A DNA stretch of 64,000 nucleotides, from IMG/VR virus record IMGVR_UViG_3300049988_000286, positions 416,001 through 480,000 of that record. One strand, written 5' to 3'. Made by a program: the position numbers and the translations under genes. The notes under the pieces were generated by a model. That model made no database searches. It saw only the letters and a program-made list of their open reading frames with translations, and was not told the DNA's origin. Below, piece by piece: positions 5,670 through 62,736 of the stretch (positions are counted from its first letter, which is position 1; every line of letters starts with the position of its first letter). This stretch comes from a virus (Duplodnaviria; Caudoviricetes).

Positions 5670-6434
5670 TCAATTTCTATAAACGAGTTTTTCCACCCCA
5701 TCGACATCAGTGAAGCGAAAGCGCACGTAGGTGTAATTACCATCAAAGTTCAACACGACGGGTCCGGTGCGCGTAGAGAGAGTTTCGCGCGCGACCTCGG
5801 CCCAATCCTGCGAGGTGGGCGTTGAGAGATCAAGGCTGGCCTCGACGATGATATCGCCGGTGTAGGCGAGCAGATGTGCCACCAATGTGTGATTACCAGA
5901 GGGATTGTCGGCACGTGCCGCGCCCGCGAGCGCACCGGTTTGTAGCTGCCCCGCCAAGGGGGTGAGGTCGTCCGCCATGATGATGATAGGCTCATCAGCG
6001 GGAGTGATGATCCCTTCCGAGACCTCGGCGATCCCCTTGGTCTCATAGTCGGTGTTGGTGTAAAGGAGGGCGGGCGTGTCGTTGGTGCTTGAGGAAACCG
6101 ACCACACGTAAATACCTAGTGTCAGTCCGATGGTGGAGGCGGCTGATAGGGTAAGGCGATAATGGCCGCGTGCGGCGTTGACGACAGCGAGGGGCTGCTC
6201 CACCAACGAATTACCCTTGCTGTCCCACAGGTGGAAGGTCAACACGCCATCGAGAACGACTGGCTGGCGGTCAATATCACGAAGGAGGAAGTCCAGATTA
6301 TTGGCAGCGCGACGGAAGATTTTGAAAGTCGAGCGATTGTAGGCAGAATGCGTGATCATCTTGGCTCCCGAATGCACGCCAGCGACGGTCAATTGTGCGA
6401 CTTGAGGGACCGAGTAGATACTAATGGCTGACAT
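5670..6434 (-). CDS. Late hypothetical protein, beta-rich, probably structural
   Basis: 254-aa ORF; ATG 5 nt after TAAATA (6440-6445). Confidence 0.7.
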   Translation of the reverse strand: MSAISIYSVPQVAQLTVAGVHSGAKMITHSAYNRSTFKIFRRAANNLDFLLRDIDRQPVVLDGVLTFHLWDSKGNSLVEQPLAVVNAARGHYRLTLSAASTIGLTLGIYVWSVSSSTNDTPALLYTNTDYETKGIAEVSEGIITPADEPIIIMADDLTPLAGQLQTGALAGAARADNPSGNHTLVAHLLAYTGDIIVEASLDLSTPTSQDWAEVARETLSTRTGPVVLNFDGNYTYVRFRFTDVDGVEKLVYRN

Positions 6435-25740: not shown

Positions 25741-26277
25741 ATGCGCCTTGCCCTCCTCGCCATTCTGCTACTCACGGGTTGCACCACCACTAGGGTGACT
25801 CTTCCCCAGCGTAGTGCCACCGAACAACTCCTCATCAGCGAAGCCGCCGAAGCTGCTGCTGTCGCGATCCACCTCAATCTCGGCTCTCGCAAAGCTTTCC
25901 TCGATACCACCAACTTCGAGGGGGTGGATGCCCGCTACGCCATGTCGGCGATCCGGGAATCCCTGCTACGGCAGGGTAATGCGATCGTTGACAACCGTGA
26001 CCTCGCCGATACCATCATTGAGGTGAGGGCAGGAGCGCTATCGATAGACAGTGCCACAAAGGTGCTCGGTATTCCGAGCGTCGATGTCCCTCGCTTCTTT
26101 ATCCCCGGCCTCAACATCGTTTCGCGCACCCGCAACACCGGCGTGGCCCGCTTCTCACTCTTTGCCTACGATCGCGCTACCGGGAAACTGGTAGCCTTGG
26201 TGGCACCGGTGACCGGTTACAGCCGCCGTGACACCAAATCGTTTGGGAGCGTCATCGCGTGGAGCGCGCAGCGGTGA
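25741..26277 (+). CDS. Late lipoprotein, host-like
   Basis: Signal peptide with lipobox LLTGC; ATG 4 nt after TAAATA. Confidence 0.8.
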   Translation: MRLALLAILLLTGCTTTRVTLPQRSATEQLLISEAAEAAAVAIHLNLGSRKAFLDTTNFEGVDARYAMSAIRESLLRQGNAIVDNRDLADTIIEVRAGALSIDSATKVLGIPSVDVPRFFIPGLNIVSRTRNTGVARFSLFAYDRATGKLVALVAPVTGYSRRDTKSFGSVIAWSAQR

Positions 26278-27095
26278 TGCGTGACCTCATCAATCTGATC
26301 GAGGGGGCGGGCGTCACCTACCGGGTTTCACAAGGACCAGACACCTACCGCTTCATTTACGATAATCATCCCAGCGTCTTCCATGACAAGAGGATCAAGT
26401 ACTTTGATCCCAAGGAGAGCGTGAGGGAGATTCACGTGATCGCAGAAATGGGTGATCTCGTAATCGGCATGGCGGGAATGCAAGTCAATCCGCATGATAC
26501 GGAGCAACTCTGGATTAAGTTCATTTCGGTCGATCCCGCCTATCAAGGGCGCGGCATCGGCAAGACTCTCCTGCGCCACATCTACCTCTATGCTGATGAG
26601 CATGGCTTCAAGATGGCACCGGGGAGTTTCTCACCGGAGGGAGAGCGTTTACGCCATCTTCATGATGAATGGGATAAGGAATTCCCACGCGTCGCCTATG
26701 ACCGTGACAAGAACGGTAACTACATGAACTCCAAGGGTCAGATCGTCCGCATGAACGAGGGTCATTCGTGGAGCCAGTGGGTGCGGCCCGGCGACGAGAT
26801 GGTCACCATCGATGTCGAGAAGGTCAGGGCATCATGGGCGCTCGACCGAGACTTCTATTTCGATGATGGTGACCACCCCAACGCGATCCGGGGACGGGTG
26901 TCTCGTTTCAACCAATGGCTGGAGCGCGGCGAAGCAATCGGCTTGCCTGAACTGTGCCTCAATCCATCCGGGGAGATTACCTTCATCAACGGTCGCCATC
27001 GGTTCGTGGCGCTGATGCAACGCGGCGTCGAGAGTCTCCCCGTCGCGGTTCCGGTAGATCAGGCTGACGAGTTTCGTCTGCGGTTCGGAAAATAG
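26277..27095 (+). CDS. GNAT acetyltransferase fused to ParB/Srx-like domain; capsid-targeting N-terminus
   Basis: ISVDPAYQGRGIGKTLL (acetyl-CoA motif A); FINGRHR; MRDLINLIE. Confidence 0.8.
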   Translation: MRDLINLIEGAGVTYRVSQGPDTYRFIYDNHPSVFHDKRIKYFDPKESVREIHVIAEMGDLVIGMAGMQVNPHDTEQLWIKFISVDPAYQGRGIGKTLLRHIYLYADEHGFKMAPGSFSPEGERLRHLHDEWDKEFPRVAYDRDKNGNYMNSKGQIVRMNEGHSWSQWVRPGDEMVTIDVEKVRASWALDRDFYFDDGDHPNAIRGRVSRFNQWLERGEAIGLPELCLNPSGEITFINGRHRFVALMQRGVESLPVAVPVDQADEFRLRFGK

Positions 27096-27123
27096 TTGTT
27101 GACACCCAAAAGCTCGTGTGAGA

Positions 27124-27129
27124 TAAATA
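27124..27129 (+). promoter_or_regulatory. Late promoter (TAAATA) of the His/Tyr leader and tRNA array
   Basis: Same motif and spacing as the other 18 leaderless late starts. Confidence 0.75.
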
Positions 27130-27134
27130 CTCCT

Positions 27135-27179
27135 ATGAACACGCAGAGCCATCACACCTATTATCATTACCACGCGTAA
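27135..27179 (+). CDS. His/Tyr-rich leader peptide MNTQSHHTYYHYHA
   Basis: ATG AAC ACG CAG AGC CAT CAC ACC TAT TAT CAT TAC CAC GCG TAA; 4 His + 3 Tyr; precedes tRNA-Tyr/His genes. Confidence 0.75.
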   Translation: MNTQSHHTYYHYHA

Positions 27180-27290
27180 GCGGGGTCGTGGTAACGCGTC
27201 CTCGTTTCGGGGACGATGAAGGTGTGAAAGAGCCAGCGTGGCACTCTCCCCATAGTTGAACCCGCGAAGACGCAGATGATTTGCGTATCA
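27152..27290 (+). promoter_or_regulatory. Attenuator-like structured leader RNA
   Basis: Perfect 8-bp helices 27167-27174/27187-27194 and 27152-27159/27220-27227; hairpin 27197-27215; alternative pairing 27170-27175/27237-27242. Confidence 0.6.
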
Positions 27291-27300
27291 TGTTGCTAGT

Positions 27301-27384
27301 GGGTCGGCTGGACACGAGTGAGTCCACCTGACTGTAAATCAGACGCTTTGGCTGTGAGGGTGCAAATTCCTTCCCGGCCCACCA
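27301..27384 (+). tRNA. tRNA-Tyr(GUA) with atypical D- and T-loops
   Basis: Acceptor GGGTCGG/CCGGCCC, A73, CCA; anticodon loop CT-GTA-AA; long variable arm; T-loop TGCAAAT. Confidence 0.85.
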
Positions 27385-27407: not shown

Positions 27408-27484
27408 GTGCGGCCGAGGCTGACTTGGATGAGGCGCGCGGTTGTGATCCGCGAGATAGTGAGTTCGAACCTCACCGGTCGCCC
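27408..27484 (+). tRNA. tRNA-His(GUG), CCA not encoded
   Basis: CGCGG-TT-GTG-AT-CCGCG; T arm GTGAG-TTCGAAC-CTCAC; G-1:C73. Confidence 0.85.
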
Positions 27485-27502
27485 CTGAACACTGTTCACC
27501 TT

Positions 27503-27596
27503 GGGAGGTGCCCCCGCTCGCCGGTTGTAACCCGGTGGTCTCTAATAAGGGTGGGAAGCATTGAGGCGATGGGTGCAATTCCTACACCTCCCACCA
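27503..27596 (+). tRNA. Atypical tRNA-Tyr(GUA)-like gene with truncated D arm and very long variable region
   Basis: Perfect acceptor GGGAGGT/ACCTCCC, A73, CCA; GCCGG-TT-GTA-AC-CCGGT; T-loop TGCAATT. Confidence 0.6.
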
Positions 27597-27599
27597 CGT

Positions 27600-27674
27600 G
27601 GCGTTGGTAGCTCAATGGTAGAGCGCTCGATTGTGGATCGAGATACGCGGGTTCGATCCCCGTCCTTCGCCCCA
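27600..27674 (+). tRNA. tRNA-His(GUG)
   Basis: Canonical D arm GCTC-AATGGTA-GAGC; CTCGA-TT-GTG-GA-TCGAG; TTCGATC; G-1:C73; CCA; two U-U pairs in the acceptor stem. Confidence 0.9.
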
Positions 27675-27702: not shown

Positions 27703-28080
27703 ATGCGCAACTTCATCGATATCGTCAACGAAACTGTTATGTCGGATTCCGACACCTACTATTATGTTGTTGGGAAGGTGCGCGACCTCTATACGATGAG
27801 GGCAACAATCGACGGCTATTGCGAAGATGGCGTGATCTACCTCGATCTTATTTCGGTAGACGATGCCGGTAACGGTGTCGGCACAGAGATGATGAAGGAA
27901 ATATGCTTCAACGCGGATGATCACCACATCGCCATAGAGCTTGAAGCGGGATCACACGGTCGAGGCAATATCAGTCAGAGAAAGCTGGAAGATTGGTATG
28001 GCCGGTTTGGTTTCAAGAAAACTGGCGCGGTCTCAAGCGAAGACCATCCCTATATGCGCAGAGAACCCTCTGCTACTTAA
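27703..28080 (+). CDS. GNAT acetyltransferase with capsid-targeting N-terminus
   Basis: LISVDDAGNGVGTEMM, LEDWYGRFGF; MRNFIDIVNE 4 nt after TAAATA. Confidence 0.8.
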   Translation: MRNFIDIVNETVMSDSDTYYYVVGKVRDLYTMRATIDGYCEDGVIYLDLISVDDAGNGVGTEMMKEICFNADDHHIAIELEAGSHGRGNISQRKLEDWYGRFGFKKTGAVSSEDHPYMRREPSAT

Positions 28081-37375: not shown

Positions 37376-37460
37376 TGGTCCCCCGGACGAGAATCGAACT
37401 CGCTGATGCTTTCGCAAACAGGCGTGAGAAACCTGCGTCCTGCCATTAGACTTCCGGGGG
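37376..37460 (-). tRNA. tRNA-Glu(CUC) with long variable arm
   Basis: Acceptor CCCCCGG/CCGGGGG, A73, CCA; CAGGT-TT-CTC-AC-GCCTG; V arm TGC-GAAA-GCA; TTCGATT. Confidence 0.88.
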
Positions 37461-37461
37461 A

Positions 37462-37545
37462 TGGCCGCGCTGACGGGAATCGAACCCGCTTCTGCTTTCG
37501 CAACAGGAGTGAAAGTCCTGCGTCCGCCCATTAGACTTCAGCGCG
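37462..37545 (-). tRNA. tRNA-Glu(UUC) with long variable arm
   Basis: Acceptor CGCGCTG/CAGCGCG, G73, CCA; CAGGA-CT-TTC-AC-TCCTG; V arm TGC-GAAA-GCA; TTCGATT. Confidence 0.88.
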
Positions 37546-61384: not shown

Positions 61385-61549
61385 ATGAACCTTTTCGTCT
61401 CCCTCGTTCTCGCGCTCGCAACCCTCGGCGCGGGCATCATCCTCTCCGTCACGGTGCCACGCTGGTTCGAGCACCGTCATCGCTCGGCGGTGATGATCAC
61501 CATCTGGTTGATCTCGCTGGTGACGGCTGTTGGGCTGATCTTCGCGTGA
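61385..61549 (+). CDS. 54-aa two-TM membrane protein
   Basis: Manually translated (MNLFVSLVLAL...); its TGA overlaps the TyrRS GTG. Confidence 0.55.
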   Translation: MNLFVSLVLALATLGAGIILSVTVPRWFEHRHRSAVMITIWLISLVTAVGLIFA

Positions 61550-62736
61550 ACATTCTCGAACGCCTTCGTGAGCGCGGCCTTTTCAAGGACGCGACCTTCA
61601 CTGCTGCGCCGGAGGTGACCACCGCGTATGTGGGCTTCGACCTCACCGCGCCGTCGCTCCACGTCGGTTCGCTCATCCCCCTGATGGCGATGCGCTGGCT
61701 CGCGATGTCAGGGCACCGGGTCTTCGCACTACTCGGGGAGGCGACGACGCGGATCGGCGATCCCTCGGGTAAGGACGAGACGCGCCGAATGCTCGGTGAG
61801 GATGAGATCGAGCGCAATCGTCAAGGCATCGAGGCGGTCATTCGCCGCATCGTCCCAGACGCGACGATCGTCTCCAACGGCGACTGGTTCAACGGCGTCG
61901 ATCCATCCTTCATGTCGTTCCTCGTCGATTATGGTCCGCACTTCACGGTCAATCGCATGATGGCCATGGATTCGGTGAAGCGTCGGCTCGATCGGCACCA
62001 ACCCCTGACCTTCCTCGAATTCAGCTACTCGCTCTTACAGGCCGTGGACTTTCGAGAGATGCATCTGCGCCACGGCGTTGATCTCCAGATCGGTGGATCG
62101 GACCAGTGGGGCAACATCGTCTCCGGTGTGGAGGTAGTGCGTCGCCGCGACGGGAAGGAGGTCATGGGTCTCACCACGCCGCTGCTCCTCGATCGCGAGG
62201 GCAACAAAATGGGTAAGTCACAGGGTCGCCCGGTCTGGCTCGACGCAGAGATGACACCGGTCTTCGACTTCTTCCAGTTCTGGCGCAACTGCGCGGATGA
62301 GGATGTAGAGCGCTTCTACCTGATGTTCACCACCGTGGCGAAAGTGTCCATCGACGCGATGGTGCGCAGCCGCGTCGCGCCCCTCGATATCAATCGTGTA
62401 AAGAAGGCCTTGGCGTTCGACATCACCGAAGTGGTGCATGGCCGGGAAGCAGCGCGCGCCGCACTCGCCCATGCGGAAGCGGTCTTCGAGCGCGGTGATA
62501 CCACCAAACTCACACCGTCGATGACCCTGACGGCCCCGCGATCTCTCGTGGAGGTCATGGTGGCGCTCGGACTCGCGGAGTCGAAGTCGGCGGCTCGGCG
62601 GCTCATCGCCGGTAACGCCGTGTCTCTCGATGGTGAAAAGATCAGTCAAGATCGCCTGATTGATCACGATGTCGTAATTCGTGCTGGTAAGAAGGCACCC
62701 TTGATGGTAGAGTTCGCTCCGGAGACAAATCAATGA
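61546..62736 (+). CDS. tyrS: Tyrosyl-tRNA synthetase
   Basis: GFDLTAPSLHVGS (HIGH), IGDPSGK, GGSDQWGNI, KMGKS, C-terminal S4 domain. Confidence 0.95.
   Translation: MNILERLRERGLFKDATFTAAPEVTTAYVGFDLTAPSLHVGSLIPLMAMRWLAMSGHRVFALLGEATTRIGDPSGKDETRRMLGEDEIERNRQGIEAVIRRIVPDATIVSNGDWFNGVDPSFMSFLVDYGPHFTVNRMMAMDSVKRRLDRHQPLTFLEFSYSLLQAVDFREMHLRHGVDLQIGGSDQWGNIVSGVEVVRRRDGKEVMGLTTPLLLDREGNKMGKSQGRPVWLDAEMTPVFDFFQFWRNCADEDVERFYLMFTTVAKVSIDAMVRSRVAPLDINRVKKALAFDITEVVHGREAARAALAHAEAVFERGDTTKLTPSMTLTAPRSLVEVMVALGLAESKSAARRLIAGNAVSLDGEKISQDRLIDHDVVIRAGKKAPLMVEFAPETNQ

Follow-up and report, generated by a model that had tools for sequence, protein, structure and literature searches.

A tRNA-Tyr-like gene with a putative pseudoknotted, non-cloverleaf core in a phage of about 500 kb

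A 94-nt tRNA-Tyr-like gene (positions 27503-27596, plus strand) was identified in a 499,572-bp IMG/VR virus record, that is, in a phage of about 500 kb, and its product is probably a working tyrosine tRNA with a core that is not a cloverleaf. Positions are those of the window, the whole 64,000-nucleotide stretch that was analysed, unless they are given as genome positions or with a locus number. Outside animal mitochondria, the cloverleaf is, to our knowledge, regarded as the form that all tRNAs take. The evidence comprises the sequence elements of the gene, their conservation in homologs, covariation in all of its helices, and its genomic context. In the predicted structure, the acceptor and T stems would form a 12-bp branch of the 8/4 type, the anticodon arm, with GUA, would be ordinary, and the 6 to 7 nt that follow the acceptor stem would pair with a strand in an enlarged variable-arm loop, thereby replacing the D hairpin.

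The 5' strand of the acceptor stem (27503-27510, 8 nt) pairs perfectly with its 3' strand (27585-27592), which is followed by the discriminator A73 (27593) and an encoded CCA (27594-27596). The eighth base is G rather than U8, and because G8 pairs with C83, the acceptor stem has 8 bp, not 7. The anticodon arm (27520-27536) has a 5-bp stem with a G-U pair at its top and a 7-nt loop with U33, GUA (27527-27529), and A37; the T arm (27570-27584) has a 4-bp stem and a noncanonical 7-nt loop, UGCAAUU. The candidate thus shares with canonical tRNAs a 7-bp acceptor stem with discriminator and 3' CCA, and an anticodon arm in which a 5-bp stem closes a 7-nt loop that has U33 and a purine at position 37. 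Between these ends the layout is unusual. Only 9 to 10 nt lie between the acceptor and anticodon stems, a gap that allows no hairpin, and no D hairpin is present; the anticodon and T arms are 33 nt apart. The short gap holds the D segment (27513-27519), which abuts the anticodon stem and constitutes the 5' strand of a rebuilt D-like helix. The longer one holds the 5' and 3' strands of a variable-arm stem (27538-27542 and 27563-27567, 5 bp in the candidate) and, in the loop between them, a strand (27549-27555) complementary to the D segment, the pairing of which is indicated by folding and covariation. An earlier note, made from the letters of the window, had listed a 7-bp acceptor stem, A73, CCA, a 5-bp GUA anticodon arm, and a UGCAAUU T arm, all of which are present in the sequence, and the two gap sizes that it gave, with no D stem, agree with our measurements.

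Standard tools did not recognize the gene. No sensible call was made by ARAGORN at default, relaxed, intron, or mitochondrial settings, and no match to the Rfam tRNA model RF00005 (gathering score, 29 bits) was found even at E values of up to 10; the homologs described below were likewise missed by ARAGORN and by the Rfam tRNA model. The sole Rfam match of the candidate was to tRNA-Sec (RF01852; 16.2 bits, E = 4), to which it was aligned as an 8/4 molecule. Alternative cloverleaf readings, in which a hairpin served as the D arm, a CUA loop was taken from the variable region, or an intron was assumed, were rejected, their stems being inconsistent. No second copy was found in the same genome with model R1, and a search for paralogs by global alignment to all 42 tRNAs returned only T-arm similarity, to the neighbouring tRNA-Tyr.

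Homologs, a search for which the earlier note had proposed, were found by pattern scans. Four further distinct sequences were recovered, three of them phage forms carried by seven IMG/VR contigs and the fourth from a metagenome-assembled genome (MAG). The productive IMG/VR pattern required ACCA and the odd T loop in addition to the anticodon loop; two more patterns confirmed its results and added one form, and a looser pattern yielded the homolog in a contig of the Verrucomicrobiota MAG, inside a tRNA array. The first strict DNA pattern for the candidate gave no matches, and neither did blastn searches of cultured phages with the candidate and two homologs. Because the collection scans used exact patterns, the Tyr family is certainly undersampled. 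Two pattern matches were set aside: L125 was not tRNA-like, and L137 was a 3' fragment only. The latter, in a Verrucomicrobiales MAG (approximately 6020-6058 of the locus, minus strand), holds, beside a tRNA array, no more of a Tyr-type gene than its 3' 39 nt (the 3' strand of the variable stem, the T arm, the 3' strand of the acceptor stem, and ACCA), with the matching 5' half absent, and is possibly a remnant or an attachment-site copy.

Searches by other routes gave more distant matches. Apart from the candidate itself, a single-sequence model of the candidate matched best to a tRNA-Ser gene of Sphingobium phage Lacusarx whose product could adopt the 8/4 form. Matches of the Tyr-type model R2 to 8/4 tRNA-Ser genes of record G001 (26 to 29 bits) were rejected as not having the same fold; because those genes keep the D hairpin, the matches reflect shared 8/4 features. 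Relatives of this phage identified by TerL were only 24 to 42% identical in that protein, the nearest being G001 (543 kb, 42%). No syntenic relative was found in IMG/VR by way of the GNAT gene upstream of the candidate, the product of which had a 99% identical counterpart on a 2.4-kb contig.

The set of distinct Tyr-type sequences (n = 5) consisted of the candidate, L109 (identical to L110 and L112), L117, L123 (identical to L124 and L126), and L136. They were aligned with MAFFT (alignment A6), in which only the candidate had an extra 4 nt. UGUAA, A73, CCA (as ACCA), G8, and the C that pairs with G8 were invariant in all five; the T loop was UGCRAUU in each, and GUA and the 8/4 layout were kept throughout. 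A structure made up of the 8-bp acceptor stem, the D-like helix (columns 11-17 with 47-53), the anticodon stem, the variable-arm stem (columns 36-38 with 63-65), and the T stem was 92.6% paired in A6, compared with 75.5% in shuffles, none of which (0 of 500) reached 92.6%, and with 40 to 60% in controls with slid partners. Thirteen pairs were changed on both sides, versus 1 to 3 in the slid controls.

Compensatory changes were spread over the molecule. In the D-like helix, columns 11-16 covaried with columns 48-53, and four pairs were changed on both sides; pair 13-51 occurred as CG, AU, GC, and UA, pair 15-49 as CG, GC, and UA, and pair 16-48 as AU, CG, UA, and UG, and pair 17-47 was formed in the candidate only. 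The variable-arm stem was 100% paired in all five sequences, with pair 37-64 appearing as UA, CG, or UG. Changes on both sides affected four pairs of the acceptor stem and two of the anticodon stem, which was 96% paired; the T stem was 90% paired and had two covarying pairs. G8-C83 and two pairs of the D-like helix never varied in the five sequences and therefore carry no covariation information. The assignment of an 8/4 branch rests on the presence of G8-C83 in five of five sequences and on the 7/5 reading, which would produce an A-C mismatch at least in the four phage sequences checked.

The D-like helix of the candidate comprises 7 bp (27513-27519 with 27549-27555), including two G-U pairs. 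A complement of 7 bp or more arose in 6.7% of shuffles of the candidate (P = 0.067), so the helix is not significant from this sequence alone; it is the homologs that make it significant. When only the acceptor, anticodon, and T stems were forced, folding returned the D-like helix at -35.2 kcal/mol, compared with -37.9 kcal/mol for the unconstrained minimum-free-energy structure, which differs and is 2.7 kcal/mol better; the z-score of the fold was only -1.5. Given this energy difference and the shuffle result, the case for the pseudoknot rests on the comparison of homologs and not on the single sequence. The pairing of CCCGC with GUGGG suggested in the earlier note proved to be real and lies in the helix with the strongest covariation (27513-27518 with 27550-27555). 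Since the variable-arm stem crosses the D-like helix, as alignment A6 indicates, the core is predicted to be pseudoknotted. The features of a pseudoknotted tRNA-Tyr were found together: a helix between the D segment and the variable loop that crosses the variable stem, GUA, A73, CCA, and a UGCRAUU T loop.

These comparisons also bear on the view that the gene is a decaying tRNA pseudogene with a deleted D arm and a scrambled variable region. Rejection by the gene finders, the lack of a close homolog in the blastn search of cultured phages, and a single-sequence complement that could have arisen by chance (P = 0.067) would all fit such decay. Against it stand five distinct sequences from different phages with the same layout and with compensatory changes in every helix, the D-like one included, which make decay extremely improbable; the conservation of structure across the five sequences indicates that the gene is not a pseudogene with a decayed D arm. 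Selection rather than decay had been proposed earlier from the intact ends of the candidate, and this proposal is borne out by the five sequences, which keep the ends, GUA, A73, and CCA.

Recognition of tRNA-Tyr by bacterial TyrRS depends on G1-C72, A73, G34, U35, and a long variable arm. This identity set is complete in the candidate; A73, G34, and U35 occur in five of five Tyr-type sequences, and pair 1-72 is G-C in four of them and A-U in one (L136). As the set is kept, the candidate is probably charged by a bacterial-type TyrRS, from either the host or the phage, and probably reads UAY codons.

The candidate is the third of four tightly packed plus-strand tRNA genes. The first is a cloverleaf class II tRNA-Tyr(GUA) gene (27301-27384; Rfam tRNA score, 29.2 bits), and the second and fourth are tRNA-His(GUG) genes (27410-27485 and 27601-27674) called by ARAGORN and by Rfam, with 43 and 61 bits, respectively; the fourth gene starts 4 nt past the CCA of the candidate. 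Upstream of the row (27097-27230, plus strand) lie a promoter-like sequence (TTGACA..GATAAATA), a leader open reading frame, and then hairpins. The leader open reading frame (27135-27179) has 14 codons, and 7 of 8 consecutive codons, translated by eye, specify His or Tyr; the region looks like a codon-matched attenuator. No terminator-like site was found inside the row. The cloverleaf tRNA-Tyr, the two tRNA-His species, and the candidate would be transcribed together behind the promoter and the His/Tyr-rich leader, and the candidate would be excised from the row transcript with its encoded CCA. Because the D-like helix abuts the anticodon stem, it could stack on that stem at the usual place of the D stem. 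We infer this stacking, as well as an L shape, processing, charging, and use by the ribosome. Our preferred, though speculative, guess is that the rebuilt core would let the tRNA escape host enzymes that recognize or cut normal tRNA-Tyr.

The T loop is among the points against a working tRNA. The usual T loop contains U54-U55-C56, the T-psi-C trio once modified, and the candidate lacks this trio and has no evident G18-G19 partner, which bears on the contacts of the elbow. Furthermore, since a cloverleaf tRNA-Tyr is also encoded by this phage, the candidate could have another role. It might, with a likelihood that we regard as low, be a tRNA-shaped decoy or regulator outside translation that mimics the acceptor end and the anticodon loop of tRNA-Tyr; such a molecule would titrate or misdirect a host nuclease or modification enzyme directed against tRNA-Tyr, or would act as a sensor, and the cloverleaf tRNA-Tyr would do the decoding. 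Its position next to that gene, by which decoding is already covered, is compatible with a decoy, as is the retention of the Tyr form by phages with very few tRNA genes. At L109 the Tyr-form gene stands alone, with its own promoter (TTGACT-17-TATACT) 7 nt upstream, and the record of this locus (G006; CheckV, 100%) contained just one other tRNA-like match. Defence systems that deplete tRNA-Tyr by destroying it, and phage tRNAs that counter them, are described in PMC11555353, and escape by phage tRNAs through the anticodon loop is described in PMC10264068.

The settings of other homologs are less easily reconciled with a decoy. In G007 (CheckV, 100%), no GUA gene other than the Tyr-form gene was found in the whole record, and the Tyr-form gene occupies a row of Ser-UGA, the Tyr-form gene, Leu-UAA, and Arg-UCU with spacers of 1 to 2 nt. 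In G008, it was the only GUA gene within an array of 21 tRNA genes, the other 20 of which encode cloverleaf tRNAs for 17 amino acids; this record is about 20% complete, and the rest of the phage genome could hold a second Tyr gene. The homolog in the MAG array is flanked by tRNA-Asn and tRNA-Met, and no Tyr gene was called there by ARAGORN. The gene is thus the sole GUA gene found, in a normal slot, in the whole of G007 and in the arrays of G008 and the MAG, and the conservation of all Tyr identity elements together with U33, A37, and CCA exceeds what a nuclease decoy would need. The settings of the homologs, L109 included, fit a working tRNA-Tyr, and the sole-GUA status in the G008 array and in the complete G007 record fits it better than a pure decoy.

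The window, which also encodes a terminase, contains a gene for a bacterial-type TyrRS (61546-62736, plus strand) with a Pfam tRNA-synt_1b match (3.7e-61) and with SYY C-terminal and S4 domains. This enzyme raises a further explanation, namely, that the candidate is a private substrate of the phage TyrRS, the two forming an orthogonal pair that would sustain Tyr decoding if the host enzyme or host tRNA-Tyr were disabled. The C-terminal domain, of the kind that binds a long variable arm, speaks for such a pair. No PF00579 domain (the class Ic synthetase core), however, was found in the CheckV-complete carriers G006 and G007, and this genome (G000) and G001 were positive in the same search. The Tyr design is therefore independent of a phage TyrRS, and a private pair is rather improbable; the suggestion in the earlier note of a substrate for the phage TyrRS only is unsupported as a general rule.

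Viewed as a working tRNA-Tyr, the candidate resembles class II tRNA-Tyr of the RF00005 cloverleaf type in G1-C72, A73, CCA, the GUA arm, the long variable arm, and its place in a tRNA row. It differs from that type in having no D hairpin, a D-like helix formed through the variable-arm loop, a pseudoknot, an 8/4 instead of a 7/5 branch, and the T loop UGCAAUU, and in receiving no RF00005 or ARAGORN call. It resembles tRNA-Sec (RF01852), the only Rfam model that aligned with it end to end, in its long acceptor stem and long extra region, but its score of 16.2 bits compares with a gathering score of 47, its anticodon is GUA and not UCA, and it has no 6-bp D stem. Animal mitochondrial tRNAs that lack the D arm, such as tRNA-Ser(AGY) and nematode tRNAs, are shortened, have a short loop in place of the D arm, and lack a long variable arm; the D hairpin is absent in both cases, whereas the candidate is longer than normal and its D helix appears to be rebuilt and not lost. 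Published tRNAs of the (8/4) type include allo-tRNAs and, in alpha-proteobacterial phages, tRNA-Ser and tRNA-His, all of which keep the D stem-loop (Mukai et al. 2017, PMC5389517). The candidate shares with them the 12-bp 8/4 branch, the long variable arm, and the setting in phage tRNA clusters, but they have a long D stem with a tetraloop, and the candidate has no such tRNA-Sec-like D stem-loop; neither a Tyr form nor a form without the D hairpin is mentioned in PMC5389517. No description of a bacterial or phage tRNA without a D hairpin was found in the part of the full-text literature that was searched.

Similarly rewired genes were found for other amino acids, which also speaks for a working tRNA-Tyr. 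A descriptor script of our own, which required a 7-bp acceptor stem, a T arm, and NCCA, was run on this genome and detected two more genes in which the anticodon hairpin follows 7 nt past the acceptor stem. These were an Arg(UCU) gene without a D hairpin (genome 73547-73628; L054:548-629) and an Arg(CCG) gene that shares this layout and is 91 nt long (genome 26889-26979; L053:1890-1980), which is located just 5' of two tRNA-Arg(ACG) genes and has about 12 extra nt before the T arm. The alignments to the Rfam tRNA model, which scored 26.7 bits for the CCG gene and 29.3 bits for the UCU gene, lacked the D arm and had an insertion of 20 to 29 nt in the variable region. A 6-bp complement in the Arg(CCG) gene, between the D segment and a strand with a GGAAUG motif, was rejected as the family helix because comparison by eye with the Arg(ACG) genes suggests that the helix is shorter and lies in the register of the family.

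Full-length relatives of the Arg(UCU) gene, with 81 to 86% identity, were present in 129 cultured-phage records, including Salmonella phage FelixO1, wV8, E. coli Vequintavirinae, and Streptomyces phages such as Yaboi. They are mostly unannotated, and the Yaboi copy is misnamed tRNA-Val(aac). A further 38 Arg(UCU) loci were obtained by a pattern scan of IMG/VR. In an alignment of 24 distinct Arg(UCU) sequences (A4), the three bases past an invariant UAU pair with the three bases past the anticodon arm; this D-like helix was 100% paired, with changes on both sides (8 and 5) and none unpaired. At the level of sequence covariation, a D-like helix formed from strands that flank the anticodon arm is thereby proven for Arg(UCU). 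Unannotated Arg(ACG) genes with the same D-hairpin-less layout were located in Caulobacter phage CcrColossus (L002:2309-2388), in the gap between an annotated tRNA-Asn and an annotated tRNA-Arg, and at L101:2689-2762, L013:2117-2191, and L087 (3291-3379, minus strand, of the reverse-complemented locus). The UCU, ACG, and CCG genes share with the Tyr form the order of acceptor stem, short strand, anticodon arm, partner strand, and T arm. They show no sequence similarity to it, however; their branch is 7/5, their T loop is canonical, and their helix has just 3 bp and is followed by a conserved UGGAG motif.

The same order of parts was observed in a Trp(CCA) gene of G001 (L133:1501-1589, minus strand), which scored 44 bits with model R2 and in which a short strand past the acceptor stem pairs with a 5-nt strand past the anticodon arm. 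It is conceivable, although we would not yet favour it, that phages carry a class of working non-cloverleaf tRNAs (Tyr, Arg, and Trp) in which the D helix is built from strands that flank the anticodon arm, and that these tRNAs would be usable by synthetases and ribosomes but hidden from host nucleases or modification enzymes directed against tRNAs. The L shape may be buildable from a different strand topology, and a pseudoknotted core may be acceptable to TyrRS, EF-Tu, RNase P, and the ribosome. Standard finders undercount and misname phage tRNAs, and similarly rewired tRNA-Arg genes are present in well-known cultured phages, e.g., FelixO1. The candidate offers a concrete and cloneable test case for the evolution of phage tRNAs that escape tRNA-targeting immunity, and non-cloverleaf tRNAs could supply new scaffolds for orthogonal translation.

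Several further observations concern the surroundings of the row. GNAT acetyltransferase genes flank it (26259-27095 and 27703-28080). In L052, a metagenome relative with 58% identity, the two flanking gene types are adjacent with no tRNA row between them, and the row is therefore an insertion or was deleted there. In the cloverleaf tRNA-Tyr at 27301-27384, the D loop is odd (ACGAGUGA) and the T loop, UGCRAAUU, has 8 nt. The gene is about 79% identical to genes in Caulobacter, Brevundimonas, and Sphingobium phages (L002:1501-1587, L003:1501-1585, and L004:1501-1579), which are unannotated in the three GenBank records inspected, and a cloverleaf tRNA-Tyr with an 8-nt T loop also occurs in 25 IMG/VR loci (L005-L029). 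The cloverleaf tRNA-Tyr is followed, in both CcrColossus and Kabachok, by a Phe(GAA)-like gene that is unannotated and has an odd T loop.

Genome-wide, ARAGORN called 41 tRNAs, many of which combine a class I identity with a long variable arm; more tRNAs, missed by ARAGORN, were revealed by the Rfam tRNA model and the descriptor script. Long variable arms, in genes of 84 to 95 nt, were seen for Met, Arg, Asn, Cys, Gln, Ile-UAU, and Glu, both in the window (37376-37545, minus strand) and genome-wide, and these long-arm class I tRNAs often form doublets with an isoacceptor of normal length. Cloverleaf tRNAs missed by ARAGORN included Val-GAC, Ala-GGC, Thr-UGU, Ser-CGA, and Ile-GAU, with noncanonical T loops, e.g., GGCAGAA, UGCAAGU, and AGCAUUA (genome positions 25982, 29033, 399736 [minus strand], 401852 [minus strand], and 403053 [minus strand]). 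Two CUA suppressor tRNAs and one tRNA to which ARAGORN assigned a four-base anticodon (UCCA) are encoded at genome positions 102238-102314, 106351-106425, and 402970-403045. In G001, an 83-nt GUA gene (L010:5340-5422, minus strand) that received no ARAGORN call can be read as 8/4 and has a 5- to 6-bp D stem and a short D loop, as in allo-tRNA or tRNA-Sec.
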